From an uncultured Bacilli bacterium (GTDB lineage: Bacteria > Bacillota_I > Bacilli_A > RF39 > UBA660), in contig CAJUQG010000003.1 in NCBI GenBank assembly GCA_910588025.1, positions 8,114-72,113 of the forward strand: a stretch of DNA of 64,000 nt, written 5' to 3'. Shown piece after piece: positions 784-50,061 of this stretch. How positions within the stretch are numbered: position 1 is the first letter of the stretch; every line of letters starts with the position of its first letter. The notes below the pieces were generated by a model. It did no database searches. It saw only the letters and a list, made by a program, of their open reading frames with translations, and had not been told where the DNA came from. The position numbers and the translations under genes were made by a program.

Positions 784-1617
784 TTACTCTCCCTCTTTCA
801 ATAATTGGCGGTATGATTCATAACGACTTTGTCTAATTTCTCCAATTGCGAGTGCCTCTTTCACACCACAGTCTGGTTCTTCTAAATGATTACAATCACT
901 GTATTTACAATGATATTTTTGAAACTCTTTAAATGCGTTACGAATTTCTTCTTTTTGATATCCTTTTAAATCTAAAGCTGAAAAACCGGGAGTATCCGCG
1001 ATAAAAAAGTCATCTACATGATAAATTTCTGTGTGTCTGGTTGTATGAACTCCACGATTTAAAGCTTCACTAATTGGAGATGTTTTTAATGTTAAATGAG
1101 GATTTAAAGAGTTTAAAAGGGTACTTTTTCCAGCTCCTGTTTGGCCAGTTACAACAACAACTTGATTTTTTAAGGCACTACGAAGCATGGATAAATCTTG
1201 ATTTGTATGAACCATGTATCCTGCTCTTTCATAATCTCGTTTTAGTTCTTGCCACTTTGCTTGTTCTTCTTCTTTTAATAAATCTATTTTGGTAAAGCAA
1301 ATCATTGGTTTTATGTGATTTAAGCTAACAAGAGTTAATAATTTATCAAGAAGATATGGAGAAAAATCTGGTTTTTTTAACGATGTAATAATTAGAGCAA
1401 TATCGACATTAGCAATACTAGGTCGCAATAAATAATTGGTTCGTGGTAAAATACGCATGATATATTTATTTTCTATATCTACTTCACAATAATCTCCTAC
1501 CAGAGGAGTAATTTTGTTTTGACGAAATTTTCCTCTGGCTTGGCAATTGATGTTTTGATTTTCAATATTCACGGTATATAAGTTACTAATAATTCGAATG
1601 ATTTTTCCTGTTTTCAT
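784..1617 (-). CDS. rsgA: ribosome small-subunit-dependent GTPase A (RsgA/YloQ)
   Basis: P-loop GQTGAGKSTLLN, C-terminal Cys cluster CKYSDCNHLEEPDCGV (zinc finger). ORF-track start at 1644 is TTG; ATG at 1617 gives MKTGKII matching the B. subtilis YloQ N-terminus and overlaps the prkC stop (TAATG). Confidence 0.88.
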   Translation of the reverse strand: MKTGKIIRIISNLYTVNIENQNINCQARGKFRQNKITPLVGDYCEVDIENKYIMRILPRTNYLLRPSIANVDIALIITSLKKPDFSPYLLDKLLTLVSLNHIKPMICFTKIDLLKEEEQAKWQELKRDYERAGYMVHTNQDLSMLRSALKNQVVVVTGQTGAGKSTLLNSLNPHLTLKTSPISEALNRGVHTTRHTEIYHVDDFFIADTPGFSALDLKGYQKEEIRNAFKEFQKYHCKYSDCNHLEEPDCGVKEALAIGEIRQSRYESYRQLLKEGE

Positions 1618-24491: not shown

Positions 24492-26687
24492 TTATACTAA
24501 TTTACGAGTTCTTGATTTAGCATTTTTTCTTTCTTCAGAATACATCGCTACTAACATTTTTTCTTGATTTAATAAGTTTTGTCTTAATAATTGATGAGCT
24601 TGTTCTACTGGATTTACTGTGTAACCTACTTCTTCTTTCGTTGGTTCTTGGTTTAAATCATTGATTAATTCAATTTCAAACATTTCATCTTCAGGAATTT
24701 CTTCCTCTATTTCCTCATTTCTAGTAGCGTTTGAAGCAGTCGCATTCGATGGAGTAGCAAGTTTCTTTTTCTTTGGTTTTGGAGCTATTATCGCATTTTC
24801 TTTGGATATGCTACTAGCATTACTTGGAGTAGCGTTACTTGGTGTTGCTACTTCTATTTCTTCTAAACTTGCAATTGGTTCAACATAGCTAGGATCTTTT
24901 AATCCTCCACAATAGCCTTTTCTTGTGCAATAGCCATCAATAAAGTTATGGTCATAATAAATTTTATATGTAGTACAATCTGACTCAGGGCAATTTACGG
25001 TATAAAAAGAACAATATTCGGTTGACTCTTTATCTGGATTTGCTTCTTGAGATTTTGATTCTAAATTATCATAGATATCTTTGTTCATTAATACTTCCAT
25101 AAGTGGCATATTTCTATAACCATGCTTATGAGGATTAGTATTTCTTGAAAAACCACAATCTTCACAAATAAAGCCGTTGACAATATGATTATCTGAATCA
25201 ATTTCATTGTGAACATTATTATGTTTTTCGATTTCTCTAGCTTCTATACATTTACAGTAACGGATATGATTTTCTTCGTCTCTTTCTTCCCAAGGTCCAT
25301 AGATATGGTTTATATGATAACGACGATTTGTCCAATCTCCACACACAGTACAATTTTCATATTCATAAACTTGAGCATTTACTTTAATAATTTTTTCAAT
25401 ACCATCAGAAGTACATGTTTCATTCTTTTGTTTATGATGACCACAAACTGGGCAATCTTCATTTTTAATATGTATATCATTTATGCCAATTTGCTCAATT
25501 GAAACTTCATATGGGCATTCTTCGGTCTTGGTTAAGACTACTTCTTTTTGACATTTATCACAAGGATATGAAGCGCTTAAATTATGAGTGCCATTTTTAT
25601 TTTGAATTGGATTTTTATATTCTAAATCTTCTGGGGCTTCAGAATGTAGATGATTTACTTGTTTTATGTCCCCACATTCACATGATCCTGTATCGAATAT
25701 ACCATCCGTTGTCCAACTATATTTATGGTCATGTTCAGTTGGAAGTTCTTCAATAGGTGGTTCTGGTTCAGATGGTTCGGTTGGAAGTTCTTCAATAGGT
25801 GGTTCTGTTTCAGATGGTTCAGTTGGAAGTTCTTCTACAGGTGGTTCTGTTTCAGATGGTTCGGTTGGAAGTTCTTCTACAGGTGGTTCTGTTTCAGATG
25901 GTTCGGTTGGAAGCTCTTCCACAGGTGGTTCTGTTTCAGATGGTTCAGTTGGAAGCTCTTCTACAGGTGGTTTTGGTTTATTATTGTTGTTATTACTTGA
26001 TCCACCATGATGACCTGGTTTAAATGTAGAAGATGTTTGTTGTTCTACTTTCTTTTCCTCTTGTTGTACAGTTTCTTCTAAATTCAATTCTGGAACAATT
26101 ATTTCTTGTGCTAATTCACTATTAGGTTCTTCAGAAACGATTGCTGTTATCTCTTTTGTAACTTCTGTTTGCACCCCATTAGAAACTGTTTGATTTTCTA
26201 TAACTACATTGCCATTTAAATATTGTAAAAGTAAAATATTTTGCCAAGCTAAACCTTTATAATGTGGAATTCCAAAACGTTCTGCTAACTCAGCACGAGA
26301 TCCAAAAGAAGAATCATAACCATTTTGTGATAACGCATCGACAATTGATACCCCATAATAATTGGAAAGATCTATGTCAACAGTTTCAACAGTATTATTT
26401 TCTTGTATTAATTTTTGGATTATTTCTAAGGTTTCTTTTTTTTGTAAACCGCCATCCATGATTAAAGGATGAATCTGTGATAATACTTCTTCCAAATTAT
26501 CATTTTCTATTAATTGTTCTAAGTTGGGAATTAATCTATCATCTTTGTTTGTACTCAATTTATTTGGAACAGTACAACTTGACATTGAAGTAGTTAAAAC
26601 TAACGTAGCAATTAACTTTTGTAAATTATTTTTTGTTTTTAATCTTTTAAAAAAATCATTTTGCATAAATTTTTTTATCAACACCAA
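24492..26687 (-). CDS. secreted/lipoprotein-like Cys/His-rich protein with proline-rich tandem repeat and putative peptidoglycan-binding (CW_7-like) module
   Basis: N-terminal signal with Cys (LVLTTSMSSC); segment SIVDALSQNGYDSSFGSRAELAERFGI...QNILLLQYLNG resembles Cpl-7-type cell-wall-binding repeats. Six 15-aa PPVEELPTEPSETEP repeats; ~330-aa region with many CxxC/His pairs; C-terminal ATPSNA repeats. Start ambiguous (TTG 26687 or ATG 26666). Confidence 0.7.
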   Translation of the reverse strand: MVLIKKFMQNDFFKRLKTKNNLQKLIATLVLTTSMSSCTVPNKLSTNKDDRLIPNLEQLIENDNLEEVLSQIHPLIMDGGLQKKETLEIIQKLIQENNTVETVDIDLSNYYGVSIVDALSQNGYDSSFGSRAELAERFGIPHYKGLAWQNILLLQYLNGNVVIENQTVSNGVQTEVTKEITAIVSEEPNSELAQEIIVPELNLEETVQQEEKKVEQQTSSTFKPGHHGGSSNNNNNKPKPPVEELPTEPSETEPPVEELPTEPSETEPPVEELPTEPSETEPPVEELPTEPSETEPPIEELPTEPSEPEPPIEELPTEHDHKYSWTTDGIFDTGSCECGDIKQVNHLHSEAPEDLEYKNPIQNKNGTHNLSASYPCDKCQKEVVLTKTEECPYEVSIEQIGINDIHIKNEDCPVCGHHKQKNETCTSDGIEKIIKVNAQVYEYENCTVCGDWTNRRYHINHIYGPWEERDEENHIRYCKCIEAREIEKHNNVHNEIDSDNHIVNGFICEDCGFSRNTNPHKHGYRNMPLMEVLMNKDIYDNLESKSQEANPDKESTEYCSFYTVNCPESDCTTYKIYYDHNFIDGYCTRKGYCGGLKDPSYVEPIASLEEIEVATPSNATPSNASSISKENAIIAPKPKKKKLATPSNATASNATRNEEIEEEIPEDEMFEIELINDLNQEPTKEEVGYTVNPVEQAHQLLRQNLLNQEKMLVAMYSEERKNAKSRTRKLV
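25735..25980. repeat. 45-bp tandem repeat (5-6 copies) encoding PPVEELPTEPSETEP
   Basis: Directly visible period-45 repetition with few substitutions inside the CDS. Confidence 0.85.
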
Positions 26688-26830: not shown

Positions 26831-27697
26831 ATGGAAAAAAAGGAAATCAATTTATCTATCGACGAAATATTACATTGTCCTATTATAGGTGAAGGATCAG
26901 AAGGAATTGTTTATCGATATGTTGATAATATTTTAATAAAAATTTATCGCAAACAAATATATTGGATGAAAGACTCTTTACAACTTTTAGACTTACCCGA
27001 TAAAATTTATGATAAATCTTCTTTACAAGTCAAAAATTATCAGGATCAATTTACTTTTCATAAACGTGATGAATTAGATTATATTAAATTATATGAAAGA
27101 GATACACTTGCAGAAATTGGAAAAAAAAGAAATGATGTAAAAAGAACACAGTTGCCAATTGGTCCTGTTTTTATTAGTCACCGTTTTAGTGGATGTTTTT
27201 TTCAAGCTGTCTCTGGCATTCCTATTCATCATCTTATGTTTTTACCATTATTTTATAAACGGAAGATCGGAAGATCGCTGATTGAAGATATACAAGAATT
27301 GGTAAAGAATTTTGTATATCCTATTGATTTAAACAATAGCCCTTTTTCAGAAACTACTATTTTAAATGAATTCGGACATTATAATATAGTTCGAGGCCAC
27401 TCTCATGTTTACATTAAACTTGGAAAACAAAAAACAAATTTAATTGATTTAGATGGAAAATCTACCATTTATACAGATTATTTTGATGAAACGTTATATC
27501 AATATACTTTGCATAGCTTGTGTATTTTACTGTTAGAATTTTTATATGGATTAGTTTATATGAATGAGTATTATGAAGATATCGATGTTTTTGCTTATGA
27601 AATTCAAAAATTAGGTCTTTCTGAAGTTTTTGCATCTCATGTTGCCCATGGGCAAATTCAAGATTTCAATGAAATTACACGAAGTTTGAAACTTTAA
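26831..27697 (+). CDS. orphan protein-kinase-like fold protein (atypical, possibly inactive)
   Basis: Strong AAGGAG RBS; Gly-rich loop IGEGSEGIVY, Lys in ILIKIYRK (VAIK-like), DLDG (DFG-like). The HRD catalytic-loop position reads GHSHVY with no Asp. No signal peptide. Confidence 0.55.
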   Translation: MEKKEINLSIDEILHCPIIGEGSEGIVYRYVDNILIKIYRKQIYWMKDSLQLLDLPDKIYDKSSLQVKNYQDQFTFHKRDELDYIKLYERDTLAEIGKKRNDVKRTQLPIGPVFISHRFSGCFFQAVSGIPIHHLMFLPLFYKRKIGRSLIEDIQELVKNFVYPIDLNNSPFSETTILNEFGHYNIVRGHSHVYIKLGKQKTNLIDLDGKSTIYTDYFDETLYQYTLHSLCILLLEFLYGLVYMNEYYEDIDVFAYEIQKLGLSEVFASHVAHGQIQDFNEITRSLKL

Positions 27698-27736: not shown

Positions 27737-30700
27737 TTAAATTTTCATTTTACTTTTTTTATAATATAGATATCCAATACCAACTAGTGAAAGGATGGAA
27801 ATGATTCCATAACTAGCTACAGAAGAAATACCCGTTTGAGGATTCTTTATTTTTCGAATTGTCATCTCATGAGTTAATTTCATACCATTTACTTCGATAG
27901 TAAACGTAACTTTTCCAGGATTTATTCCTGTAATGATTCCAGATTCATCAATCGTAGCAATGGATTCATCACTTGATGAATAAGTATAAATTAAATCATC
28001 TGTAACATCGGTTGGATTTAAAGTAACATTTAATTTTGTTGTATCTCCAACATTTAATTCATTCACTGGATTTTCTAACGAAATACTTTCTAAATGAACT
28101 TCTGTTACATTTACTTCTACACTTTTTTCAAGGTCTTTATAAGTTGCAGTAATGGTTACAGTTCCTTCTTTTTTACCTGTTACGATACCAAATTCATTTA
28201 CTATAGCTATTTCTTCATCGCTACTTGTCCATTTAATTTGGTCTTTTTCAGTTGTATTTTCCGGTGTTACTAATACTTCTAATTGTTTTTCTTCTTTTCT
28301 TTTTATTTCTAATTTATCAGTTGCAAATTCCATATCTGTAATAGGAATGATTTCTACTTCTACTGTTACAGTTACTTTCATACCGTTTGATAATGATCCT
28401 GTAATCACTGATAATCCAGCATTTTTAGCTGTTACAATACCAGAATCATTTACAGTTGCAACTGATTCATTATTACTTGTCCAAGTAATTGTTTGATCTG
28501 TCGCGTTTTCTGGATTAATTTTTGTTACTATAGTAGATGTTGTACCTTTTAATACTTTGATGTTATCTTTAGAAACTAAATGAAAGCTTGTTACTGGAAT
28601 GACAACTTTTACAGTTATTTTGTCTTCTTTGGCACCAGATTTTGCTGTAATGATTGCTGTACCAGCATTTTTAGCAGTAATCATACCTAGATTATTGACA
28701 CTGACAATATTATTATCACTACTTGACCAGTTTAATGTATCTGAGTTATCACTTGGTTCTACTTTAGCTGTTAAATTATTTGTTGTATTGATATTCATTG
28801 TAATTTCTTTTTGGCTATTAATTGTAACCCTAGTGGTAGGAATGGTTACCGTAACATTTAATGAAGCAGTTAACCCATTTGAAGTTGTTGCTGTAATGGT
28901 TGCAGTACCTTTTCCAACTGATTTTACAACGCCGTTATTGTTTATTGTTGCAACACTGTTATCACTACTTGTCCAAGTAATGGTTTTATCACTAGAGGTT
29001 ATATTAGGTGTTAATTTTACTTCTAATTTTTCTTCTTGTCCTTTTCCTTCTAATGTTAGTGAATCTTTATTTAATTCTATTTTAGTAATTGGATCAATGA
29101 CTGTAATTGTAGAAGTTACAGTTTCTTTGTGTTGAGGGTTCATGTTACTAGTCCAAGTTGCCGTAATAATTGCAGTACTTGCAGAACCATCATTTGGTGA
29201 AATTGCTGTTACTTTTCCAAATTGATCAACAGTAGCTACAGAAGGATTACTACTTGTCCAAGTAATCAATCCAGTTTCTTCTGCACCAGTAGTTGGTGTA
29301 GCAATTAAATCAATTGTTTCTCCCTTTTTTAAAGTTTGATTTGGAATATTGATATTTAAGCCTTCTACTTCTTTTAGTACTTTAATTTTTCTTGTTTTTG
29401 TAATACTTCCACTTTGAATTGTTAGTGTAGTTTCTCCAGCATTTTTAGCAGTAATTAGTCCACTATTATCAACGGTTGCAATTGTGTTATCTAAAACACT
29501 CCAAGTGATAGTTTTATCATTTGCATTTGCTGGGATGACACTAGCTATTACTTTTTGTGTTTGATTTGGAAGTAATGTAATCGTATCTGTAATATCAATA
29601 GAAATATCTGTAACAGGAACATTTACGTTTACTTTAACAGAATCAGAATGATTACCTACCGTTAACGTAATCGTTGCTTCTCCACCATCTATCGCTGTTA
29701 CTTTTCCAAATTGATCAACAGTAGCTACAGAGGTATTACTACTGGTCCATTTTAATGTATCTGTAGTATCTGATGGTGTTACAACTCCAGTTAGTGTTTT
29801 TGTAGTATTTTTATCTATTGTAAAATCGGTTTCATTAATGGTAACACTTGTTGCAGGTGAAGTAACATTAAGTACTACACTATCTGTAAATTTTTCTGAT
29901 GTCTCATTGGAAGTTGCAGTTACACTAATAGTTATAGTCCCATTTTTTAAGATGCTTACTACCCCATTATTATTTACAGTAGCTACAGAGGTATTACTAC
30001 TTGTCCAAGTATAATTAATCGTATCACTTGTTGTACTTGGAGTTGTCTTAGTTGTAAGAGTAATTGGACCACTTAATGTATTTTTGTTTATTTCTAGTGT
30101 ATTATTTGTAATTTCGTTATTACTAATATTTACACCACGCAAGTGTTCTTTTACGTTTACTACTACTTCAAATTCTTTTTGGAAAGCAGTTACTTTGATT
30201 TTAGCAGTACCAATTTTTAAACCAGTTACTACGCCATTTTCTACTTTTACTACATCGAGTCCGTCAGTTATTTGATAAGTGAAATTTTTATCATCGGTTG
30301 TATCTTTTGGTGAATAATCAACTACAATATTATCATTTTTATTAGAGCTTCCTAAATCAATTTCTAGTGTTGGTGTTGTTAAATTAATACTACTTTCAAT
30401 CACAGGAACTCTTATAAATACACTTTCATTCACACCATTTACGGTTACTGGTGTAAGCGTTTGTCCGCCATCTGTTATTTTATTTGCTTCAATGTTTGTT
30501 AAAGTAATATCTGTTTTACCAGAAGCAGTTTCTAGTACTTCAAAAGTAATATCTCCAATATCTAAACTAGTATTGGTTGGAGCACCCATATACATGATTG
30601 ACCAAACTAAAAGTCCGTTTCCTTCATCCATTACATTTTCACTTGGGCTTGGATTTTTTGTTGTTGGATTGTAACTTATTAATTTTAATTTTGTAGGGTC

Positions 30701-30967
30701 ATAATTGATGAAGAAAGAAAGTGAATTAAATTCTTTATCGTTTTCAAAATCTAAGTGGTACGTTACTGTTTTTTTACTACCACTTTCACTACGATCAATG
30801 ATGGCATCTTGACCATTTTGAGCAGCGATAACTGGATTTGTTACACTTACTTTCAGGGTTGGAGTTGCATCTGCTACTGCATAGGCAATGACAGATACAA
30901 AACAGATTACACTAATGATTAAACCAGTCCACTTTTGTTTTAATTTCCATTTTCTTTTTTTTGTCAT
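27737..30967 (-). CDS. cell-wall-anchored surface protein: N-terminal cohesin-like module, ~9 Big_2 (Ig-like) repeats, C-terminal NPQTG sortase-B-type sorting signal
   Basis: Signal peptide; residues ~40-190 contain LSFFINYDPTKLKLISY, similar to the cohesin V-YDP--L signature. Repeated TWTSSN-SVATV...G-ATITA Big_2 units. C-terminus NPQTG + hydrophobic stretch + KKSKMKI tail. ATG at 30967 with AGAGGTG RBS. Confidence 0.75.
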   Translation of the reverse strand: MTKKRKWKLKQKWTGLIISVICFVSVIAYAVADATPTLKVSVTNPVIAAQNGQDAIIDRSESGSKKTVTYHLDFENDKEFNSLSFFINYDPTKLKLISYNPTTKNPSPSENVMDEGNGLLVWSIMYMGAPTNTSLDIGDITFEVLETASGKTDITLTNIEANKITDGGQTLTPVTVNGVNESVFIRVPVIESSINLTTPTLEIDLGSSNKNDNIVVDYSPKDTTDDKNFTYQITDGLDVVKVENGVVTGLKIGTAKIKVTAFQKEFEVVVNVKEHLRGVNISNNEITNNTLEINKNTLSGPITLTTKTTPSTTSDTINYTWTSSNTSVATVNNNGVVSILKNGTITISVTATSNETSEKFTDSVVLNVTSPATSVTINETDFTIDKNTTKTLTGVVTPSDTTDTLKWTSSNTSVATVDQFGKVTAIDGGEATITLTVGNHSDSVKVNVNVPVTDISIDITDTITLLPNQTQKVIASVIPANANDKTITWSVLDNTIATVDNSGLITAKNAGETTLTIQSGSITKTRKIKVLKEVEGLNINIPNQTLKKGETIDLIATPTTGAEETGLITWTSSNPSVATVDQFGKVTAISPNDGSASTAIITATWTSNMNPQHKETVTSTITVIDPITKIELNKDSLTLEGKGQEEKLEVKLTPNITSSDKTITWTSSDNSVATINNNGVVKSVGKGTATITATTSNGLTASLNVTVTIPTTRVTINSQKEITMNINTTNNLTAKVEPSDNSDTLNWSSSDNNIVSVNNLGMITAKNAGTAIITAKSGAKEDKITVKVVIPVTSFHLVSKDNIKVLKGTTSTIVTKINPENATDQTITWTSNNESVATVNDSGIVTAKNAGLSVITGSLSNGMKVTVTVEVEIIPITDMEFATDKLEIKRKEEKQLEVLVTPENTTEKDQIKWTSSDEEIAIVNEFGIVTGKKEGTVTITATYKDLEKSVEVNVTEVHLESISLENPVNELNVGDTTKLNVTLNPTDVTDDLIYTYSSSDESIATIDESGIITGINPGKVTFTIEVNGMKLTHEMTIRKIKNPQTGISSVASYGIISILSLVGIGYLYYKKSKMKI

Positions 30968-31042
30968 AGTAAACACCTCTATTATTAAGTTTATTTTATC
31001 ATTTTCTTTGATTAATTACTATCTATTTTCTTCTATTTTACA

Positions 31043-31930
31043 CTATTCACTTTTTAAGCCAAGACTTCTTCTTAAGATATAGTACACATCTCCAGCATCA
31101 ATACGATTGTTGTTATTGATATCTCCTCGGATTAACTCTTCAGCAGTTGGTTTATTTAATCCAAGACTCATTCTAAGAGCAAGATAATGATCCAACGGAT
31201 TTATTTTACCATCACCATTAATATCTCCTTTTAAATAATCAAGAACTGTTACTTTGGTTTGTAATGTTTTCATACCATAACTTGCAGTAACGTTTGTTTC
31301 ACCACTTTGATTGGCTTTTATTTTTCCATTACTATCTATACTTACTAATGTATTATTTTTAGAAGTAAAGGTGACTTTATTTGGAGAAATGATTAGTCCA
31401 TTTGGAACATACATTTCTAATTGATAAGTTTCTCCTACACTTAGTTTTAAATCACTTGCATTTAATTTTAATTCATCATAATTTACAATATTTATTTCCT
31501 TTTCTAAATTATTAGGAGATAAAGGTGTCGAATCTGCAAATGATAATTTGGGATTTTCTAATTTTAAATTAGCACTACAAGTATTTTCTTTTGCTTTTAA
31601 AGTAACTTTTAACATAGTAAAATCTTCTTTTGTTCCCATTAAATTACTGTAAGCAAATTTTTTACTTTTTTCATAATATGTAGCGAATGGATTTTGTATC
31701 TCCACTTTAACTACATCAAAACAAGTTTCATCACTTACGGAAATGATTCCACCTGCAGATATTAATTCAGATCCCTGAATACTACTAAATATAAGATTTT
31801 GAGTGAATTCTTCTGTTATTTCAAATAATTCATTTCCTTCCCATGCTATATTGGCGGAAGAACTTGCGTATACACACATGGGTATTGCTAAGAGCAATAA
31901 AAAGGAGATGAAAATATGATTTTTCTTCAT
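31043..31930 (-). CDS. secreted dockerin-bearing protein (beta-sandwich module + Big_2-like + type-I-like dockerin)
   Basis: Signal peptide; C-terminus GDINGDGKINPLDHYLALRMSLGL...RGDINNNNRIDAGDVYYILRRSLGL fits the duplicated calcium-binding dockerin repeat. N-terminal domain is homologous to the N-terminus of the next gene. Confidence 0.75.
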   Translation of the reverse strand: MKKNHIFISFLLLLAIPMCVYASSSANIAWEGNELFEITEEFTQNLIFSSIQGSELISAGGIISVSDETCFDVVKVEIQNPFATYYEKSKKFAYSNLMGTKEDFTMLKVTLKAKENTCSANLKLENPKLSFADSTPLSPNNLEKEINIVNYDELKLNASDLKLSVGETYQLEMYVPNGLIISPNKVTFTSKNNTLVSIDSNGKIKANQSGETNVTASYGMKTLQTKVTVLDYLKGDINGDGKINPLDHYLALRMSLGLNKPTAEELIRGDINNNNRIDAGDVYYILRRSLGLKSE

Positions 31931-31948
31931 ACAAACTCTCCTTTCTAA

Positions 31949-34312
31949 TTATTCATGATAGCGATTTGATCTTGATTTTCTTGCTTCTTCTTTTCTTAAA
32001 GCTTCTTTTTCGCGATTTAATCGTTCTTGTTCATATAATAGTTTTAATTTTTTAGAATCTTTGGTTTCAATTGCTTCATTAATAGCATCAAAGATTTCAT
32101 CTTTTGTGACAATTTCATCATATGGATCATATGGAATTTCTTCATATTTTGCTTCTTTTGTATTTTCTTTGTCTTCTTTAAATTTCGTTTCTAATTCTTT
32201 TTCTGGATAACCAGTGTATTGATTTAATACTCCTCCAGCTTCTACAACATCATCATCTGTTCCATTTTTAGATCCAAAATTAAATTCAGGTTTAAATTCA
32301 ATTACTGGCGATGAAGGTGACGCTCCATGAGCATCTACTACTGGAATTTTTGGAGTTTCTTCTTCTTTTCTTTTCTTTAGTAATAAAATTAGAATAAAGG
32401 TTAATATTCCAATTAATAATAATGATCCAAAAAGTAATAACCATTGTCCAAGAGTAAGTCCTAAAAAGGTACTCTTTCCTTCTTTTGTAACATTTAAACG
32501 GTAGTATTGAACGAATCCATTTTCATCTGTTACTTTAATTAAAATAGCATTGTTTCCTTCTCTTAAATTTTCATTTCCTATAATTTCTACTTGGGAATTT
32601 TCAAATTCAGGAATAGCAGTAATATCAAGTTTATTTACTTTTCCTGTTACAGAAACTTCATATTCATATTTATTTGATTCAAATCTTGGAGATATTTCTC
32701 CGTTTGTAATAATTAAATCTTTTAATTTATTTTGATTTACTTTTTCACTACGATTTACATTAATTGTATAAACTCTTAAAGAGCCATCTTCTGCTCTTAC
32801 CTCAATAGTAACTACATTCATTCCAATTTTAAAATTGTCATTTCCTATAATACTAACAGAGGCATTTTTATCTTCAGCAAATAATTTTAAATCTAGTGAT
32901 TCAACATCATTTGGTACTGTGATATTATAACTATTATTATTTTTATCAAATCCTGGTTTTAATTCTCCATCATTTACCATAATACTTTCTAAGTAATTAT
33001 TAGCAGATTTTGAAGGAGCGTTTGTATTAGATGCTGATTTACGATTTACATTAACAATATAAACTTTTTCAGAACCATCTTCTGCTGTAACTGTAATACG
33101 TACAGTATTTACTCCTTCTTTCCAACCATTGTTACCACTTATTTTTACAGTAGCTTTTTCATCGTTTGGAAGAGCTGTTACATTTAAACCAGTAATGTTA
33201 TTATTTACACTAATATTATAAGATGTTACATCTTTGTTAAAAGTTGGAATTAAAGTAAATCCTGAAACATCTAAGCTTTTTAGAGTTGCATCACTATTTT
33301 TAGCTGGAACATCTGGTTGTTCATCTCTTTTTGTTACTGCTACTTCATATGTTTTTGTTGTTCCATCTTCTGCTTTTACAATGATACTACAAGTTGTTGT
33401 TTTATCAGTAAGATTACATGTTTCGCCACTTACAATCGATGCTTTATCATGATTTGGAATGGCATCAAATTTTACACTAGTCGCATTAGAAGCTGTTTCC
33501 ATTGTGTAACTTGTTGTATTTGGAGTAAAGGATGGTGATAAAGTATTACCAGTAGATGTTAAAGATTTTAGGGTTGCATCATTGCTTTTTCCTGGAACAA
33601 CTGGATCTGGATCTTTTTTTGTAACTACTACTTTGTAAGTTTTTGTTGTTCCGTCTTCTGCTTTTACGGTAATATTACAAGTTGTTACTTTAGAAGATAA
33701 ATTACATGTTCTACCACTTGTTACACTTGCTTTTGGATCTGTTACTGAAGTATTAAAGGTGATACTTCCTGTATTAGCTGGAATACTATCAATAGTATAA
33801 TTAGTAGTTCCAGCGTTAAAGGCTGGTGAAAGTGTACCTACACTTGGTGATAATGATTTTAAAGTTGCATCACTACCAGCTGCTCTTACTGTGATTGTTT
33901 TTGAGAATGTTGCTGGAGATAATCCTGTATCATCTGCGAATGCTAATTTTGGTTTTGTAATATTGATTGTAGCTGTACAAGGAGAGGATCCAGCTGTAAA
34001 TTTAACAGTTGTAAGTTGCGTGTCATTTCTTGTACCATTTAAATCAGTCCATGCAAATTTTCTAGAACCAGTATAACTTAGACAAGTATTATCTGAAGAT
34101 GATATTTCCCCACCTACAGAAATGATTTCTGATCCTTGAATACCAGTTGCCCAAATAGTCATTGTTAATTCTTGTCCAACGAGAACTGTATCATTACCAC
34201 GCCATTCAAATCTTGCAGTAGTACCATCTGCAGCAAAAGATTGTGGTAATCCTGCTGCTATTAATAAGCTTATAGCAATGGATAAGATTCCTATTCTTAA
34301 TTTTCGTTTCAT
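31949..34312 (-). CDS. type-I membrane surface protein with cadherin-like beta-sandwich repeats and a ~170-aa charged cytoplasmic tail
   Basis: Signal peptide, N-terminal domain paralogous to 31043..31930, at least 5 repeats of (N/S)DATLKSL...LSP-F-P-TT-Y...V-AEDG-T-KTY (cadherin-like PF12733 type). Single TM (LLLFGSLLLIGILTFILILLL) then K/E-rich tail. ATG 34312 with GGAGGA RBS. Confidence 0.75.
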   Translation of the reverse strand: MKRKLRIGILSIAISLLIAAGLPQSFAADGTTARFEWRGNDTVLVGQELTMTIWATGIQGSEIISVGGEISSSDNTCLSYTGSRKFAWTDLNGTRNDTQLTTVKFTAGSSPCTATINITKPKLAFADDTGLSPATFSKTITVRAAGSDATLKSLSPSVGTLSPAFNAGTTNYTIDSIPANTGSITFNTSVTDPKASVTSGRTCNLSSKVTTCNITVKAEDGTTKTYKVVVTKKDPDPVVPGKSNDATLKSLTSTGNTLSPSFTPNTTSYTMETASNATSVKFDAIPNHDKASIVSGETCNLTDKTTTCSIIVKAEDGTTKTYEVAVTKRDEQPDVPAKNSDATLKSLDVSGFTLIPTFNKDVTSYNISVNNNITGLNVTALPNDEKATVKISGNNGWKEGVNTVRITVTAEDGSEKVYIVNVNRKSASNTNAPSKSANNYLESIMVNDGELKPGFDKNNNSYNITVPNDVESLDLKLFAEDKNASVSIIGNDNFKIGMNVVTIEVRAEDGSLRVYTINVNRSEKVNQNKLKDLIITNGEISPRFESNKYEYEVSVTGKVNKLDITAIPEFENSQVEIIGNENLREGNNAILIKVTDENGFVQYYRLNVTKEGKSTFLGLTLGQWLLLFGSLLLIGILTFILILLLKKRKEEETPKIPVVDAHGASPSSPVIEFKPEFNFGSKNGTDDDVVEAGGVLNQYTGYPEKELETKFKEDKENTKEAKYEEIPYDPYDEIVTKDEIFDAINEAIETKDSKKLKLLYEQERLNREKEALRKEEARKSRSNRYHE

Positions 34313-34350: not shown

Positions 34351-34469
34351 CTTATTATTAAATTTATTATACAACTTTTATAACATTACTGTCTACAAAA
34401 TTCGACATTATTCTGCAAAATAAAAATGGGATGTTATTTCTTTTTAGTCCTTCAAATTTGGGAATAAAC

Positions 34470-34500
34470 TAATAGAAAAAAATGCAGACTTATTTTAGTC
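34470..34500 (-). terminator. Rho-independent terminator after the 34511..41806 gene
   Basis: Minus strand tgtagactaaaataagtctgca hairpin (8-bp stem, 1 mismatch) followed by TTTTTTT, 11-40 nt after the stop. Confidence 0.5.
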
Positions 34501-34510
34501 TACATTTAAT

Positions 34511-37500
34511 TTATTCAATTGGTCTTGGATGAATAAAACTTCTCTCTAGATAATGGTTAATTACTTTTCCTGAATCTAGTGGGTCAATCTCTCCATCAAT
34601 ATTTATATCACCAGCGATTGCATATGCATTTAAAAGTTCTGTTCTTTCTAGATAATGGTTAATAATTTTTCCAGAATCTAATGGGTCAATTATTCCATCA
34701 CCATTAACATCTCCAAGAACTACAATTGTTTTTGAATCTTTTTCTACTCCATCAATTATTAATTTGATAACCATTCCAGTTCCAACATATTCATCTTCTG
34801 CTATTTCTGTGATTCCATCTTCTTGATAAATGAATAGTTTGCTGTTTTCATTATCTAATTGATCTTTTAGTTCTGAAGGAGCGATTTCATCTGTAACAGA
34901 TAAAATATAATCATCGTTAATTGTATGACCAAATGTTATAGAAGTAATTTTTTCTTCTACTACGTCGACACGATTTATTTTCACCACATAAGTTTCACTA
35001 TTGCCATCTTCCGCTGTGACAACGATAGTAACTGAAGTTTCTCCAACTGGTAAATTATCTAGTGTTTTGGTACTTCCTGAAACATAATCTTCCCCATTTA
35101 TTTTGATAAGAGCACCACTATGTTCTGAAGTAGCAATGAAATCTATGGTATTTAAATCATTTGATAAATCTACTGTATATTCATACACTTCTTTACCAAA
35201 GCTTGGAGTAAGTGTTCCTGCTCCCACCGTTATATTACTTAAGAAGGCATTATTACTTGGTGTTTTGGTATAAGCAATTTCATACGTTGTTTTAGTTGTG
35301 TTATCCTCAGCAGTTACTTCGACTTTAATCGTTCCACTGGTATTTGGAAGATTTACGGTACTACTTGATTGTTCGACATCATTTACATAGTATTTTATAC
35401 TTGCTAAGGTATCACTTAATGAGGCTTCTATTTTTAAAGAGGCAAGATTGTATGGAATATCTCCAATACTATAATGATTATCTGCTGCACTACCAAAGTT
35501 TGGAGTTAAAGCATATTCTTTGGTTGTATCTGTTACATCCATCACTTTTAAATCTGTTAAAGAGGCATCATTACTTGCTGTATAATCTGCTCTTTCAATA
35601 TCAACGGTATAAGTTTCTTCATCCCCATTTTGAGCAGTTACGACAATGGTTACGGTTGTTTTACCAACTGCTAAACTGCTAAATGTTTTGGTTAGTACTT
35701 CTTCTCCATTCATTGTTACAGTAGAAGTATTATCTTCTTTTGTCACATTTAATCTTACTGTATCTAAATCATTTGGAATGCTAATTTTATACGTTTTTAC
35801 TTCTGGTTTAAATGGTTCACTTAAACTTAAAGCGTTATTTTCTTTATCAAATGCTTCGATATTCGATAAGTTGTTATTAAAAGAATTTACTTTGGTATAA
35901 GAAATCGTATAAGTTTTGGTAGCGATTTTATCTGCTGCTAGGACTCTTACTTCGACATTTTTTGCACCTAAGGCCGAATCAAGGGTTATTTCACAACTTG
36001 AGGCATCATGACAACTTGTAATTTCGTTGTTATCGTAATAATAAGATACCGTGGCATTGGTATTTGTCTTTCCAGCATTGATATGTAATTTATCTACTGC
36101 TTGGAAGATGTTTCCAATACTATAGTTTTCTTTTTCACTTTCAAATGTTACTTCATTTGTTCCATCGGTAAATGGATATTCATCTACTGATAAGGTATTT
36201 AGGGTTGCTTCATCACTTGCTGATATTTCAATGTTAAAGGTATAAGTTTTATCTGGGGCATTAGTATCTTCTGGATGAACCGTTAAGATAATTGGAGTAT
36301 CTGCTACATTAAATGTCCCATTTCCATCTACGGTTGCTGCGGCAATAGATGGTATTCCTTCAATATCAATACTCGTGGTACCAAATGGTACTACGATAGT
36401 ATACGTATCATTGGTTGGTGATAATGTTTCTTTTAGTGAACCAACATTTAATTTGACTTCTTTTAATGTCGCATTGGTTGAAGCTGGTTTTTTCACAGTA
36501 ATGGTATAATGTTCTTCTGTATCATTTTCCGCTTTTACGGTAATGTGATAAATATTATCACCAGTTACTAATTCTAAGTCATTATCTTCTAATGTTACCG
36601 TTGAAGTTGGTTCTACGGCTTCGGCAAGTATTTCAGAAGCAAGTAATTTTTCTTTGGTTTCTTCTACATTGATTGTGTAGTTTTTCGTATTTTCAAAGTC
36701 AATCGCTTCTTCAAAGGTATAGGTACCTACGGTTAATGTTTTTAAGTAGGCATTGCCATTTTTGGCACGATTTACTTTAATTTTATAAGTTAAAGTTTTG
36801 GTTGTATCTTCTGCTACAGTATGAATTTCAATGGTGTTTTCTCCAGTATTTAAACTATGAGTAGTATTTCCACTTGTTATCGAAGCATCCGTATCCGTAG
36901 TTTCTCCAGAAATAATAATGTTTTTGATTTCATTTCCAACATCTGGAATGGTATATTCATATACACCATCTTGTAAGGTTATTTCTGTTTCTGTATCTGA
37001 CATATTAAACTTATAAGCTAATTTTTTTAAAGTAGCATCGGTTTTTGGTAATTTTATTATTTCAACATAGTATTTGGCTTCAATTCCTGATTCACTTGTA
37101 ATGGTAAATTCTTTGGTTACAGTACCAGTGGAAATGCTATAGGTATCAGAAGTTCCTGCATCAACACCTAAGTATTCGATTTGGGCTAAGGCACTATCCG
37201 ATACAGCATCAAAGATGACTTTATCTACTGTACCAGGAATTGTTACAGTAAAACGATTTAATTGACTTGCGTGAGCATTGACAACAAATTCATTTCCCTC
37301 TGTATCTTTGATTTTTAATGATTTTAAAGAATTTACTCTACTTTGTTCTCTTAGAATTTTCAAAGTATAAGTTTCTTTCTTACCATTTTCCGCGGTTACT
37401 TCAATGGTGAAGGTTTCATCGGAAGATGCTAGAGTAACTGTTTTTAAATCGCCATCTTTAATTTTTTGATGAGCTTCTCCCAGTTCCGCATCTATTTGAA

Positions 37501-40500
37501 TGGAAGTTGTTGAGACTGGAACACTTACGGTGTAAGACGTAATGCCATCACCAAAAGACGGTGACCAAGAACCAATATCTGATTTAGTATCAGGGTCTAA
37601 AATGGAAATGGATTCTAAGTAAGCATTGCTACTTAATTCTCGTGTAATTTGCATGGTGTATTCTTTTTCTGTTCCATCTTCTGCAGTTACAGTAAATTTG
37701 TGAGTATTTACATTTGAAGTAATTTCATCATCTGTTTTTAATGCTGTTTCATTCATTGTAACTTTAGCTTGGGTATCATTGTCACCTGGAAGAGTTGGAA
37801 CGGTTACTAAGACATTGGTGCTATTTGCAACATTCACCTTATTTGGAACGGTAATTTCATAGCGATTATTAGCAGCATTCCATGTTGCGATATGGTCAAC
37901 CCCATCATACTTCATGGCTACGCCATTTTCTCCTACTGTAACATCACTGCTTGCATTTCTTGTAATGTTAATGGTGTAGTCTTTATAAATACTTTTGTTA
38001 TGAGCAAATGCTCTAATTACAAAGGTATTGGTATAAATATTTCCACTATCATAGGTTGTACCATGGTAAATGGTTTCAATATTTTTAGAACCAGTTCCAG
38101 AAGTCGTACCATTTTCTGTATCCATGCTAGTTGCATCAAGAAGAATCGTTGCTACACTATTTTCAAACATATTTAAATTATAAGTATAATTGGTGTCTTC
38201 GATTGCTTTGCTTGGGTCATTATCAAATGTTTCACCTGTTAAGTAATCATTAATTGGATTTCCGTCAATGGTAATCATAGATAATCTAGGTTCGGTATTA
38301 TCTTCTCTAGTAATGGTTAGGTTATAAATTTTTGGTACATTCATTTCAGAAGTTACTGTAATCGTTACTAAATTATTTCCATATGCAAGATTCGTTACAT
38401 CAAAACTAATGTCACTTGCTGCAGCTCCTGTATATTTGTTACTTGTTATTTTCGCTGTACCATCTTGAGCTTTGATGTGTAATGATACGGTTGTTTGAGA
38501 GCTTGGAACTGTAATAGAACGATTTGGAGTTACTTTATCATTCCCTAAAATATCTACTAGAGTTTCACTATTGGCATTTGTTTCTAGTAAGTCTAATAAG
38601 TTGTTTGATGATTTTTGACGTTTTACTACGACAGTATAGTCTTTACTTGGTGCAGTTTCATCTTCTGGTTGAACGGTTAGAATTCTATTTTGAGTCGAAT
38701 CACTAGCATCAGAAGTCATGGTATATTCTGTTGTATTATCTGGTGATACTGTAGCACCATCTGGTAATACCGCTTCTAAACGATATTTTGAAGTACCAGT
38801 TGGAACCTCAATCGTACAACTTGTATTAGCTCCTGTATATTCACAGAATCTTGAAGATGTTTGTTCATCTCCGAGATAAAGATTTACACGAGTTATCGTA
38901 TTGTTCGTCGACTTTTTTCGCGTAATGATGATGTGATACGTTTTGGTTTCACCATTTTCAGCTGTTACTAAATAATCAAAGGTGTTATCTGTAGAAGTTT
39001 GAAGATTTAAAGTACCTGTAGTAATAGCAGTTGCTTTGGAAGTTGTTTCGCTTGTAGTAATTTTAATATCACTCCATGTTACTGTTGTAATACTATTTTC
39101 TACTTCAACTTTGTAGGTAGAATTGGTAGCATCACTAGGGTCTAGGGTGGCAGTAACACCATGAACTTTTACGTCATCCGTATCAACACTGTTATTTGCT
39201 TCTTTATACATTTTTAAGGTATAGGTTTTTTGGTTACTTTTATCTTGGCTGTCAACGTTAATGGTAAAGGTATATTCATAGACAAATTGGTTTGTACCAG
39301 TAGGAACTAATTCCTTGTCATTATAAGATGTTAAATCAATGGAACCAATATTTCCTGTTACCGTTGATTCGCTATGTGATTTGTCATATTCAATATTTAT
39401 ACTTGTTGTGTTATAAGGAAGTGGATTGGTTTTGGTAGATAATTCATAGCTATCTTTTGTTTTATTAAATTCAGGAATTAAGGTTGGAGTTGAGCCATTA
39501 TACCCGACACGAATTTGATTTAATAAGGCATCATTGGACATTTTTCTGGTAATCACAATTTCATAGTCGATTGGTTGACCATTTTCTGCTTCGATGTGAA
39601 CTTTTACGGTATTTGGTCCATATTTTAAATCAGATACGGTATTATTTGTAAAGGTAAGTCCAGTGTCTCCAAGTAGAGATGTACTTCTTACATTATCATC
39701 TTGCGTTTCATAATTTATGGTAACACTTGTAATTTCTGGGTCTACTTCGGCGGTATAACCAGTGGTTTTGGTTGGAGAAAATGTTTCTTTAATTCCGGTA
39801 CCTGGTGTTACACTTAAGCTTTTTAATAAGTTATTGGAAGAAGTTAGTCTAGTAAAATCGATTTTATAGACACGATTAGAACCATCTTCGGCGGTAACAA
39901 TTACTCCTACTTTAGTTGTTGTTTTTGGAAAAGTTTTAGAATCTGTATTTAATACTTTATTTGAAGTATCTACGGTTTCACTTGTACTCATATCAATGAT
40001 ACTTACTGATGCTTTATTGGTATCTTTAACGGTTGCACTTATAGTAATATCTCCGACATTTGCAGGGAAGGTATAGGTATAATTTCCCATACTCGCATCA
40101 AAGGTATTTACGAAATTTGGTGCAAGTGTTCCTGTTGGAGTTGATGTGATTGTTAAACCATTTGTAGCAGCTAATAAGTTATCATTGGATAAACGATGAA
40201 TGTGAATAATATATTCTTTTTTGGTTACTCCATCTTCAGCGGTAACGGTTACTTTAATGCTATTATCTCCTACAACAAGGTTTTGAGTAGCATTGCCATC
40301 ATCACCGATTTTTACAGTGCTTAAAGAGTCTGCTACCGTTGCCGTGATGTTTACATTTGTTTTATTGGCCGCAACATCTGCGATTGTAAATTCTTTTTTT
40401 TCTGGGTCATTTACAGGATCAAAACCAGGTACAGTTACGCCATCTACTTCTAATACGTTTAAATTAACATTTTTAGATGGAGCAGTACGAATGATTTCAA

Positions 40501-41806
40501 ACGGATAAGACTTGGTTGTACAATTGGTATTTCCAGGAATCGTTGCATATTCTGCTTTACATTCTTCTGATTTCACTAAAATTGTATAATTGTTTGTTGT
40601 ATCTGTATTACCATTGGAATTAATTGTCCAAGACCCAATTGGAGCATCTAAAAAAGCATTGGCATCTGTTAAAGTTACGGTGATATCAGAAGATGCTGTT
40701 TTATAAGGAACAGTAATCGAATTGGCAGTATCATTGATATTATTAAATGCTATTCCATTGGTTCCTGTTACACTTGTAATAGAGGTATCATTAGACAAAC
40801 GTTTTACATCTATTTTGTAAATGGTTGTATCTCCAGATTCAGCAGTTACGACAATGTTAATGGTGTTATCCCCTACATTTAACGTATGATTACCTGGGTT
40901 ATCTCCACTTGGAGTTTCAAGTGGTCCGCTTAAGACATTCATATTGGTAATATTTTTGACACTAGCATCCGTTGGTGTACCACTTAAGACGATAGAATCG
41001 ACGGCATTTGGTACAGCAAAGGAATATTCTAAATCTGTATCTGAATCTGGAACAAAGCTAAATGGATAATCTAAATTATTACTTCCTGTTGCAGTTAATG
41101 TATTTAGTGTTCCAATTTTAGAAACGTTAGATGCTACAGTTAAAACTAAGTCATTAAATGTAGCATCACCTTTGATTTCTATATTTTCTGGATTTGATAA
41201 AGTTGCCATCGTTTTATCAAAAGAAATAGTAATATTTTCTCCTGATGAAACGTTATCTGATACTGTATAGTATAAAGCTAGGATAGTTCCTTCTTTTACT
41301 AGTGGTGTTTCTACTTGATCGTCCATAATCTCTGAAACAGCACTTTCTAATCCATTTTTATTTAAGAATGTTGGATCTGATATGGTCCAAGCTGTTCTTG
41401 TTGAACTTCCACTCTTTAACGGAAAAATGGCGTTTGGATTTTTACTTGAAGCTGGTGAATCATTTAAATTATATAAATTTGTATTTAAGCTAATTTGGGA
41501 AGGGTCTGAATCTATTTTTAGTCTCATATACACTAGTTCTGAGTCACTAGATGGTCTAATGTGAAGAAGAACCATTATCTTCATTCCTTTTTCAACTTGG
41601 GAATTTGTAATTAGATATTGGTCTAAATCGCCATCTAATGCTCTTTCAAAGCATTCAAATGCAGCATCTTCTGAATCCATACAAGTTTCACTTGTTACAT
41701 TGTATGGAACAAAACTATAGTCATAACTTGCAGCATTTACATTTTTTATGCCTAGAGCCATTCCTAATATAATTCCTAATACAATTATTATTTTGTTTTT
41801 TTTCAT
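34511..41806 (-). CDS. giant (~2431 aa) secreted dockerin-bearing protein composed of ~20 cadherin-like beta-sandwich repeats
   Basis: Signal peptide, long array of ~95-aa repeats with the (A/S)-LK-L...P-F-----Y...TAEDG---K-Y consensus. C-terminal duplicated dockerin GDVNGDGIIDPLDSGKIINHYL...GDINIDGEIDPLDSGKVINHYL. ATG 41806 with AGGAG RBS (41815 is GTG). Confidence 0.8.
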   Translation of the reverse strand: MKKNKIIIVLGIILGMALGIKNVNAASYDYSFVPYNVTSETCMDSEDAAFECFERALDGDLDQYLITNSQVEKGMKIMVLLHIRPSSDSELVYMRLKIDSDPSQISLNTNLYNLNDSPASSKNPNAIFPLKSGSSTRTAWTISDPTFLNKNGLESAVSEIMDDQVETPLVKEGTILALYYTVSDNVSSGENITISFDKTMATLSNPENIEIKGDATFNDLVLTVASNVSKIGTLNTLTATGSNNLDYPFSFVPDSDTDLEYSFAVPNAVDSIVLSGTPTDASVKNITNMNVLSGPLETPSGDNPGNHTLNVGDNTINIVVTAESGDTTIYKIDVKRLSNDTSITSVTGTNGIAFNNINDTANSITVPYKTASSDITVTLTDANAFLDAPIGSWTINSNGNTDTTNNYTILVKSEECKAEYATIPGNTNCTTKSYPFEIIRTAPSKNVNLNVLEVDGVTVPGFDPVNDPEKKEFTIADVAANKTNVNITATVADSLSTVKIGDDGNATQNLVVGDNSIKVTVTAEDGVTKKEYIIHIHRLSNDNLLAATNGLTITSTPTGTLAPNFVNTFDASMGNYTYTFPANVGDITISATVKDTNKASVSIIDMSTSETVDTSNKVLNTDSKTFPKTTTKVGVIVTAEDGSNRVYKIDFTRLTSSNNLLKSLSVTPGTGIKETFSPTKTTGYTAEVDPEITSVTINYETQDDNVRSTSLLGDTGLTFTNNTVSDLKYGPNTVKVHIEAENGQPIDYEIVITRKMSNDALLNQIRVGYNGSTPTLIPEFNKTKDSYELSTKTNPLPYNTTSINIEYDKSHSESTVTGNIGSIDLTSYNDKELVPTGTNQFVYEYTFTINVDSQDKSNQKTYTLKMYKEANNSVDTDDVKVHGVTATLDPSDATNSTYKVEVENSITTVTWSDIKITTSETTSKATAITTGTLNLQTSTDNTFDYLVTAENGETKTYHIIITRKKSTNNTITRVNLYLGDEQTSSRFCEYTGANTSCTIEVPTGTSKYRLEAVLPDGATVSPDNTTEYTMTSDASDSTQNRILTVQPEDETAPSKDYTVVVKRQKSSNNLLDLLETNANSETLVDILGNDKVTPNRSITVPSSQTTVSLHIKAQDGTAKITSNKYTGAAASDISFDVTNLAYGNNLVTITVTSEMNVPKIYNLTITREDNTEPRLSMITIDGNPINDYLTGETFDNDPSKAIEDTNYTYNLNMFENSVATILLDATSMDTENGTTSGTGSKNIETIYHGTTYDSGNIYTNTFVIRAFAHNKSIYKDYTINITRNASSDVTVGENGVAMKYDGVDHIATWNAANNRYEITVPNKVNVANSTNVLVTVPTLPGDNDTQAKVTMNETALKTDDEITSNVNTHKFTVTAEDGTEKEYTMQITRELSSNAYLESISILDPDTKSDIGSWSPSFGDGITSYTVSVPVSTTSIQIDAELGEAHQKIKDGDLKTVTLASSDETFTIEVTAENGKKETYTLKILREQSRVNSLKSLKIKDTEGNEFVVNAHASQLNRFTVTIPGTVDKVIFDAVSDSALAQIEYLGVDAGTSDTYSISTGTVTKEFTITSESGIEAKYYVEIIKLPKTDATLKKLAYKFNMSDTETEITLQDGVYEYTIPDVGNEIKNIIISGETTDTDASITSGNTTHSLNTGENTIEIHTVAEDTTKTLTYKIKVNRAKNGNAYLKTLTVGTYTFEEAIDFENTKNYTINVEETKEKLLASEILAEAVEPTSTVTLEDNDLELVTGDNIYHITVKAENDTEEHYTITVKKPASTNATLKEVKLNVGSLKETLSPTNDTYTIVVPFGTTSIDIEGIPSIAAATVDGNGTFNVADTPIILTVHPEDTNAPDKTYTFNIEISASDEATLNTLSVDEYPFTDGTNEVTFESEKENYSIGNIFQAVDKLHINAGKTNTNATVSYYYDNNEITSCHDASSCEITLDSALGAKNVEVRVLAADKIATKTYTISYTKVNSFNNNLSNIEAFDKENNALSLSEPFKPEVKTYKISIPNDLDTVRLNVTKEDNTSTVTMNGEEVLTKTFSSLAVGKTTVTIVVTAQNGDEETYTVDIERADYTASNDASLTDLKVMDVTDTTKEYALTPNFGSAADNHYSIGDIPYNLASLKIEASLSDTLASIKYYVNDVEQSSSTVNLPNTSGTIKVEVTAEDNTTKTTYEIAYTKTPSNNAFLSNITVGAGTLTPSFGKEVYEYTVDLSNDLNTIDFIATSEHSGALIKINGEDYVSGSTKTLDNLPVGETSVTIVVTAEDGNSETYVVKINRVDVVEEKITSITFGHTINDDYILSVTDEIAPSELKDQLDNENSKLFIYQEDGITEIAEDEYVGTGMVIKLIIDGVEKDSKTIVVLGDVNGDGIIDPLDSGKIINHYLERTELLNAYAIAGDINIDGEIDPLDSGKVINHYLERSFIHPRPIE

Positions 41807-41881
41807 AATATACACTCCTATATCATATTCACCCTATTGTTGTCATTATAACATATTTATTTTTATTATTCTATTTATTTT

Positions 41882-50002: not shown

Positions 50003-50023
50003 AACAATCACTACTATCTCTAC

Positions 50024-50061
50024 TATATAAAAGTATAACACCTTTTGTCGTATTTTGTCAT
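50024..50061 (-). promoter_or_regulatory. sigma-A-type promoter (ATGACA, 17 nt spacer, TGtTATACT) of the 41882..50002 gene; copy conserved upstream of the paralogue
   Basis: RC of 50056..50061 is ATGACA; RC of 50032..50038 is TTATACT with upstream TG; 17-nt spacer. The same ~50-bp element recurs at 59441..59475. Places the TSS upstream of ATG 50002 but inside the ORF-track GTG extension. Confidence 0.5.

Follow-up and report, generated by a model that had tools for sequence, protein, structure and literature searches.

A candidate wall-anchored cohesin scaffold and a class B sortase in one gene cluster of an uncultured gut Bacilli bacterium

Results

The stretch of DNA analysed here (the window; 64,000 nucleotides of contig CAJUQG010000003.1, assembly GCA_910588025.1) comes from an uncultured Bacilli bacterium and carries a cluster of cohesin and dockerin genes together with a gene for a class B sortase. 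The members of this cluster are all co-directional on the minus strand, from 60794 down to 27737, in the order srtB, a gene for a protein of 152 amino acids (aa), three genes for giant dockerin proteins, a membrane-anchored cohesin protein, a small adaptor and, last, a cohesin protein that ends in a cell wall sorting signal. This last protein, which we call the anchor, and its relation to the sortase are the main subject of this work.

The anchor open reading frame (ORF) lies at 27737..30976 on the minus strand, and its translated C-terminus reads ...RKIKNPQTGISSVASYGIISILSLVGIGYLYYKKSKMKI*. The start is likely the ATG at 30967, 8 nt past an AGAGG ribosome-binding site, which gives a gene at 27737..30967 and a protein of 1076 aa; a 98%-identical homologue of 1075 aa is known. 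The protein begins with a typical signal peptide, MTKKRKWKLKQKWTGLIISVICFVSVIAYA (read directly from the sequence, no predictor being used), followed by one cohesin, about ten Big_2 domains, the pentapeptide NPQTG, a hydrophobic span and a basic tail. The cohesin (30407..30865) sits at the far end of a stalk of about ten immunoglobulin (Ig)-like Big_2 domains (27857..30379; PF02368, 311.8 bits in ten stretches). A whole-protein Pfam scan did not report the cohesin, and the isolated N-terminus was needed to detect it, at 39.0 bits (E 1.2e-9) against a PF00963 gathering score of 24.1. The orthologous anchor of a related locus, L009, also matches Cohesin (40.8 bits). The cohesin/Big_2 architecture proposed in a preliminary description of this DNA is therefore the one recovered by the domain models.

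The same description had placed a tripartite sorting signal at 27737..27860, and all three parts are found there. NPQTG (27830..27844), with predicted cleavage between T and G, stands 30 residues before the C-terminus; it is followed by an uncharged hydrophobic span of 23 aa, ISSVASYGIISILSLVGIGYLYY (27761..27829), the basic tail KKSKMKI (27740..27760) and the stop codon (27737..27739). The gene is on the minus strand, and the plus-strand reading of 27737..27860 was discarded, its translation being meaningless. A pattern scan of all six-frame ORFs of at least 80 aa returned the anchor's as the single sorting signal in the 64 kb.

The signal is conserved across the anchor family. Of the 45 homologues of similar size (1020-1110 aa), 37 have a sorting signal, and the pentapeptide keeps a fixed place just ahead of the hydrophobic span. 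T is invariant at position 4, and 36 of the 37 signals have P at position 2 and 31 have G at position 5; at position 1, 32 have S or N (S in 24, N in 8) and only one has L. Many homologues bear SPKTG or SPQTG, and [SN]PxT[GS] is kept down to about 35% identity. Judged by this conservation, the sorting signal of the anchor is more than chance, and its consensus, [SN]P[QK]TG, spans both the (S/P)PxTG of Clostridioides difficile SrtB and the NPxT(N/G) of Isd-type SrtB.

The sortase gene (60087..60794, or 60803, minus strand) lies on the same strand as the anchor gene and about 29 kb upstream of it with respect to transcription; it encodes a protein of 235-238 aa with an N-terminal membrane helix. 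The protein matches PF04203 with 63.9 bits, and its best NCBIfam model by a wide interval is TIGR03064 (128.5 bits over residues 8-234 of 235; next model, 61.8 bits). Its PDB sequence matches are class B in 15 of 15 cases, the top one being the type II pilus sortase B of Streptococcus pneumoniae (4Y4Q). When an AlphaFold2 (AF2) model with a predicted local distance difference test score (pLDDT) of 86 was compared with known structures by Foldseek, ranks 1-19 were all class B (E 1e-13 to 4e-10); classes D, A and C enter the list at rank 20, from E 8e-8, at least 200-fold weaker. In an alignment of 22 relatives, conservation reaches at least 90% at each of the three catalytic residues, His141, Cys222 (in TLSTC) and Arg229, all of which the protein has. 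By sequence and predicted fold the window sortase is thus a class B enzyme with an intact His-Cys-Arg triad, in agreement with the earlier class assignment.

The window also codes for a PASTA kinase, a PBP5-type carboxypeptidase and a LiaF-like protein, whose presence indicates that the organism makes peptidoglycan. The sortase gene is followed directly, in the window and in all close relatives (L001-L008), by the gene for a 152-aa single-pass membrane protein (59577..60035, minus strand) with no family match in Pfam or NCBIfam. It is absent from the more distant cassettes, from L009 onward, and could encode a sortase accessory factor.

Gene neighbourhoods in relatives bear directly on the relation between sortase and anchor. 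With the sortase alignment as query, a scan of a single genome from each GTDB species gave 80 loci. The closest of these, L008, belongs to an uncultured mouse-gut Bacilli metagenome-assembled genome (MAG) with a sortase of 70% identity; it has the same gene order as the window (tig, lon, srtB, 152-aa gene, giant gene), as do L001-L007. The next-nearest relatives, at 38-46% sortase identity, have no giant genes. Among them, the sortase lies 0-51 bp from an orthologous cohesin/Big_2 anchor of 1064-1147 aa in L009, L010, L011 and L013, and within about 3 kb of one in L014 and L015. Three Clostridia MAGs (L016, L054, L057) have the same cassette, in which the sortase adjoins shorter cohesin anchors with the signals LPNTG, KPKTG and LPKTG. 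One to three dockerin proteins accompany the sortase-anchor pair in eight of these nine loci (all but L014). A small cohesin protein with a plain C-terminal transmembrane anchor flanks the pair in L009-L011 and L013-L015, and the membrane-anchored cohesin proteins of the relatives are without a sorting motif. The gene order of the window is itself kept piecewise in the closer relatives.

A similar association extends to class B loci at large. In 24 of the 80 class B loci, a gene within 5 kb of the sortase gene, mostly its direct neighbour, encodes a protein with an xPxT[GSNA] signal, and the 25 signals of these loci have N at position 1 in eight cases and S in six (14 of 25 together). NPQTG itself occurs next to class B sortases in L020 and L056, and class B sortases of other gut Firmicutes adjoin proteins with NPQTG, NPKTG, NPNTG or SPQTG. 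Together with the [SN]PxTG signals of the anchor homologues, these loci bear out the earlier suggestion that NPQTG belongs to the motif space of class B enzymes. Because the neighbourhood in relatives, the motif conservation of the anchor and the wider class B loci all point the same way, the sortase and the cohesin anchor are very probably a co-inherited enzyme-substrate pair. As read from gene order, the conserved neighbourhood considerably strengthens this pairing.

The preliminary description had also called this the only sortase, about 30 kb from the anchor. That is correct for the 64-kb window only, where one sortase gene is found at a distance of about 29 kb; the relative L009 has two class B-like sortases. 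The second of these is about 8 kb upstream of that MAG's cohesin-anchor cassette, next to a gene, truncated by the start of the locus, for a protein of 313 aa or more with an NPSTN signal; the two genes together occupy 2..1843 of L009.

The giant genes, all on the minus strand, encode a secreted protein of 3099 aa (50110..59409) and proteins of 2719 aa (41882..50041) and 2434 aa (34511..41815). Pfam models find three ALK_LTK_GRD, 15 Cadherin-like and one Big_2 domain in the first, with a dockerin at about 50137..50304; two ALK_LTK_GRD, 19 Cadherin-like and one Big_2 domain in the second, with a dockerin at about 41909..42076; and 12 Cadherin-like domains in the third, with a dockerin of a second type at about 34553..34717. 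In the two largest, the copies of the ALK/LTK glycine-rich domain (PF12810) are interspersed with the Cadherin-like repeats, and their last 68 residues, dockerin included, are identical. Each giant ends in a dockerin and lacks a sorting signal, as had been noted earlier, and Pfam recognised no enzyme domain in any of the three. The four dockerins of the window fall into three sequence types: that of the two largest giants, that of the third giant and that of the adaptor. All dockerins within a locus are nearly identical in L009 and in L010.

No glycoside hydrolase domain was found in the four dockerin proteins of the window or in the six scanned in L009 and L010, and the cargo in relatives consists of BspA-LRR and CAP proteins. 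An Isd-like haem system was also considered, but no NEAT domain was found in the scanned ORFs of at least 150 aa (all but lon and the cut-off tig gene).

Two further proteins, which the preliminary description had missed, also carry cohesins. The first 130 residues of a 295-aa protein (31043..31930, minus strand) are 40% identical to the N-terminus of the neighbouring 793-aa ORF, which encodes a protein of 787 aa (31949..34312, minus strand). Pfam gave no match for the N-terminal domain of either protein, and a word-indexed homologue search with this shared domain found nothing. An exhaustive HMMER search with it returned a small family of 41 representatives. In all of them the domain comes after a signal peptide; the proteins end in a dockerin, in a transmembrane helix with or without a conserved cytoplasmic tail or, once, in an HPKTG signal. 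To judge from these sequences, such architectures are those expected of scaffoldins. Aligned by hhalign with the profile of the anchor cohesin, the divergent domain scores 77% probability (E 2e-5, 119 columns). In an AF2 model of the 295-aa protein (pLDDT 90), Foldseek superposes it on the solved cohesins 2VO8, 2JH2, 5NRM, 5N5P and 2XDH with template modelling (TM) scores of 0.66-0.73 and root mean square deviations of 3.1-3.7 A; the cohesins matched are from Clostridium perfringens, Acetivibrio cellulolyticus, Ruminococcus flavefaciens and Archaeoglobus fulgidus.

On the strength of this model, the 295-aa protein is a monovalent adaptor with a signal peptide, a divergent cohesin (31463..31861), a Big_2 domain and a Dockerin_1 match of the third type (about 31082..31231). 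The 787-aa protein is a membrane-anchored cohesin, with a signal peptide, the divergent cohesin ("domain X", 33875..34237), five Cadherin-like domains, a transmembrane helix and a cytoplasmic tail. The two divergent cohesins of the window have no BLAST similarity to the anchor cohesin; the wall and membrane cohesins of relatives still share 20-30% identity. Taken with the dockerin types, this sequence divergence suggests several binding specificities.

The tail of the 787-aa protein (31949..32400, minus strand) extends about 140 aa past the transmembrane helix on the cytoplasmic side. It contains a motif, IPYDPYDE-VTKDE...KLK-LYEQE-LNR, that is conserved in about a dozen family members, a hint of a partner inside the cell or of a part in signalling. 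The ORFs of 793 and 295 aa lie in one reading frame, with a single stop codon and 18 nt between them (31930..31951, minus strand). We considered a single gene split by a nonsense mutation and rejected it, because the 295-aa protein begins with a signal peptide of its own and the two proteins are encoded separately in relatives (879 or 787 aa; 294 or 295 aa). The shared frame is probably a coincidence.

A scan for promoters and terminators was overall no better than on shuffled sequence (43 promoter-like sites, where 41.6 were expected). The 2434-aa gene is closely followed by a terminator-like hairpin (34507..34480, minus strand), and the promoter-like site that scored best (34395..34366, minus strand) closely precedes the membrane-cohesin gene. 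These positions hint, suggestively only, that the membrane-cohesin, adaptor and anchor genes may form their own transcription unit.

Several features lie beyond the anchor gene. A 288-aa ORF (26831..27697, plus strand) with no family match is convergent with it, and a gene of 288 aa is found at the same position and orientation in L088, L089 and L090. A 731-aa ORF (24492..26687, minus strand) has a lipoprotein-like N-terminus, then a repeat and then a Cys/His-rich region, with no Pfam or NCBIfam match; the repeat is a 42-nt tandem repeat of 5.7 copies (25733..25972) encoding PVEELPTEPSETEP. L088 and L089 have a ToxN-like gene in its place. A T-box leader (RF00230, 24247..24440, minus strand; 103 bits against a gathering score of 93) precedes the isoleucyl-tRNA synthetase gene and overlaps its listed GTG start (24274), so that the true ileS start is further downstream.

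Discussion

We propose that the signal peptide would direct export of the anchor, which its hydrophobic span and basic tail would then retain in the membrane. From the sequences we infer that the class B sortase (60087..60794) cleaves NPQTG between T and G and transfers the anchor to peptidoglycan. The result would be a wall-linked stalk of about ten Ig-like domains carrying one cohesin at its far tip. The dockerin proteins of the array, that is, the three giants and the adaptor, would attach to the cohesins non-covalently, and the 787-aa membrane cohesin would offer a further docking site nearer the cell. In other words, the whole would amount to a cellulosome-type surface display without enzymes. 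A wall-anchoring scaffoldin that is fixed by the class B sortase of the window and displays giant adhesin-like proteins is, in our judgement, the best explanation of the locus as a whole, and we regard it as probable. The signal, the domain architectures, the class and catalytic triad of the sortase and the conserved neighbourhood on which this explanation builds were observed directly.

The preliminary description had proposed a division of labour between covalent and non-covalent anchoring. The contrast between a covalently fixed anchor and dockerin-borne partners is supported, and the cassette is conserved in relatives, but the arrangement has three tiers rather than two because the 295-aa adaptor and the 787-aa membrane protein had been overlooked. 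This leads us to a broader hypothesis, which we hold tentatively, with confidence a little short of even. It envisages a three-tier, enzyme-free docking system in which a sortase-fixed stalk, a membrane cohesin whose tail might signal and an adaptor that bridges specificities would work with three dockerin types to mount or exchange adhesin-like giants of 2,400-3,100 residues. The cassette would be distributed across several lineages of uncultured gut Firmicutes and is absent from the literature searched.

Sortase anchoring of a scaffoldin with a single cohesin has an established example in ScaE of R. flavefaciens and a proposed one in Sca2 of Ruminococcus bromii. Like the anchor, these proteins combine one cohesin with a C-terminal sortase signal and hold dockerin partners at the surface. 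They differ from it in several respects. A review gives LPXTG for ScaE, whereas the signal here is NPQTG, and the cohesin of the anchor is set apart from the wall by about ten Big_2 domains. The cluster here includes the gene of a class B sortase, whereas the sca cluster, listed as scaC-scaA-scaB-cttA-scaE, has no sortase named in it. The cargo here is without glycoside hydrolases, being made up of giant Cadherin-like and glycine-rich proteins or, in relatives, of BspA-LRR and CAP proteins. Finally, the host here belongs to an uncultured Bacilli lineage of the gut. A ScaE-type scaffoldin combines a cohesin with a wall-attachment element and a cargo of dockerin-bearing carbohydrate-active enzymes; the anchor has the cohesin and the wall-attachment element, and such a cargo was not found. 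The ScaC-type adaptors of R. flavefaciens resemble the 295-aa protein in having one cohesin and one dockerin, the architecture that defines a monovalent adaptor; here, however, the cohesin is too divergent for Pfam and a Big_2 domain lies between the modules. The non-cellulosomal cohesin-dockerin pairs of C. perfringens glycoside hydrolases likewise place cohesin and dockerin outside cellulose degradation, and the best fold matches of the adaptor cohesin include C. perfringens cohesins (2VO8, 2JH2, 2W1N). Those modules are on secreted enzymes, whereas here they are on wall or membrane scaffolds and non-enzymatic giants.

With respect to the sortase, a close parallel is C. difficile, whose single class B sortase acts on adhesins and hydrolases through (S/P)PxTG and is a candidate housekeeping enzyme with seven or eight predicted substrates (PMC4155245). 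The two systems share the enzyme class, adhesin-type rather than haem-uptake substrates, P at position 2 and TG at positions 4-5, and the window sortase is 30-31% identical to C. difficile SrtB in structural alignment. They differ in that position 1 is N here and that the enzyme is clustered with one substrate family. The SrtB-IsdC pairs of Staphylococcus aureus and Bacillus anthracis resemble the present case in the clustering of a class B gene with its substrate and in an N-P-x-T-x motif, NPKTG being a further motif of Isd-type SrtB. The NPQTN motif and the operon habit of the Isd-type enzymes are described in the same work on C. difficile (PMC4155245). Unlike those systems, the window has no NEAT or haem-uptake domain in its scanned ORFs, and the substrate is a cohesin scaffold. 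The preliminary description called scaffold cargo unusual for SrtB. This judgement reflects the Isd paradigm and is overstated in view of the C. difficile SrtB adhesins and the ScaE and Sca2 precedents.

What sets the locus apart from known systems is the NPQTG motif, a class B sortase inside a cohesin-dockerin cluster, the long Ig-like stalk and an enzyme-free cargo in uncultured gut Bacilli. In the literature searched, no paper joined cohesin, dockerin and class B sortase.

Several observations weigh against a sortase-fixed scaffoldin. The NPQTG string appeared in the searched literature in a single paper, on S. pneumoniae class C sortases, with no enzyme shown cleaving it. C. difficile SrtB rejected NPQTN and NVQTG, so position 1 can matter (PMC4155245), and the signals of the Clostridia cassettes show, as far as sequence tells, that this position need not be N or S for the present sortase clade. 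Two model scores fall short of their curated cut-offs: the sortase reaches 128.5 bits against the TIGR03064 equivalog cut-off of 153.75, and the anchor reaches 14.0 bits against the 15.9 of TIGR01167 (LPXTG_anchor). Three dockerin types face three cohesins, and the assignment of partners among them is only inferred. Finally, about 29 kb of giant genes separates the sortase from the anchor in the window, and L009 carries a second class B-like sortase (989..1843) within 10 kb, beside a protein with an NPSTN signal.

These last two points, and the fact that 64 kb of the genome is covered, are what favours processing of NPQTG by another, housekeeping sortase elsewhere in the genome, the class B enzyme of the window serving a different substrate. 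We nevertheless consider this unlikely: the sortase clade stands beside or near an orthologous or analogous cohesin anchor in nine related loci, the window offers no further sorting-signal protein as a substrate, and the position-1 leucine preferred by class A sortases occurs in only 1 of 37 anchor signals. The shortfall of the LPXTG_anchor score could instead mean that the C-terminus is an uncleaved membrane anchor in which NPQTG is incidental, and plain transmembrane anchors do occur on the 787-aa protein and on the small cohesin proteins of L009-L015. However, those membrane-anchored cohesin proteins lack such a motif, whereas the anchor pentapeptide has a fixed position before the span, with P at position 2 in 36 and T at position 4 in all of the 37 signals, and a sortase gene is co-located, so that an uncleaved anchor seems distinctly improbable.

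A class B sortase may also act as a polymerase, and the enzyme of the window could link anchor subunits into a pilus-like fibre in the manner of the streptococcal class B pilus sortases. Its best PDB sequence match, 4Y4Q, is such an enzyme, and the pilus sortase Spy0129 is also among its top matches. Pilus and wall-anchoring class B enzymes score almost equally, though, the anchor is a Big_2 stalk with a cohesin rather than a pilin, and there is no second pilin-like sorting-signal protein; we think a fibre very improbable. A wall-anchored scaffoldin served by the sortase of its own cluster thus remains the explanation that we prefer.

Cohesin-dockerin interactions have been studied almost entirely as cellulosomes and amylosomes, and the same logic appears to be used here without enzymes. 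The cluster offers a clean candidate pair of class B sortase and NPQTG substrate that can be expressed; if the pairing is true, the known specificity of class B enzymes would be extended beyond haem uptake, the C. difficile substrates and pili. Protein engineers might also gain from the system orthogonal cohesin-dockerin pairs and a new sortase motif. For the organisms themselves, such a system could explain how uncultured gut Bacilli attach to hosts or particles.

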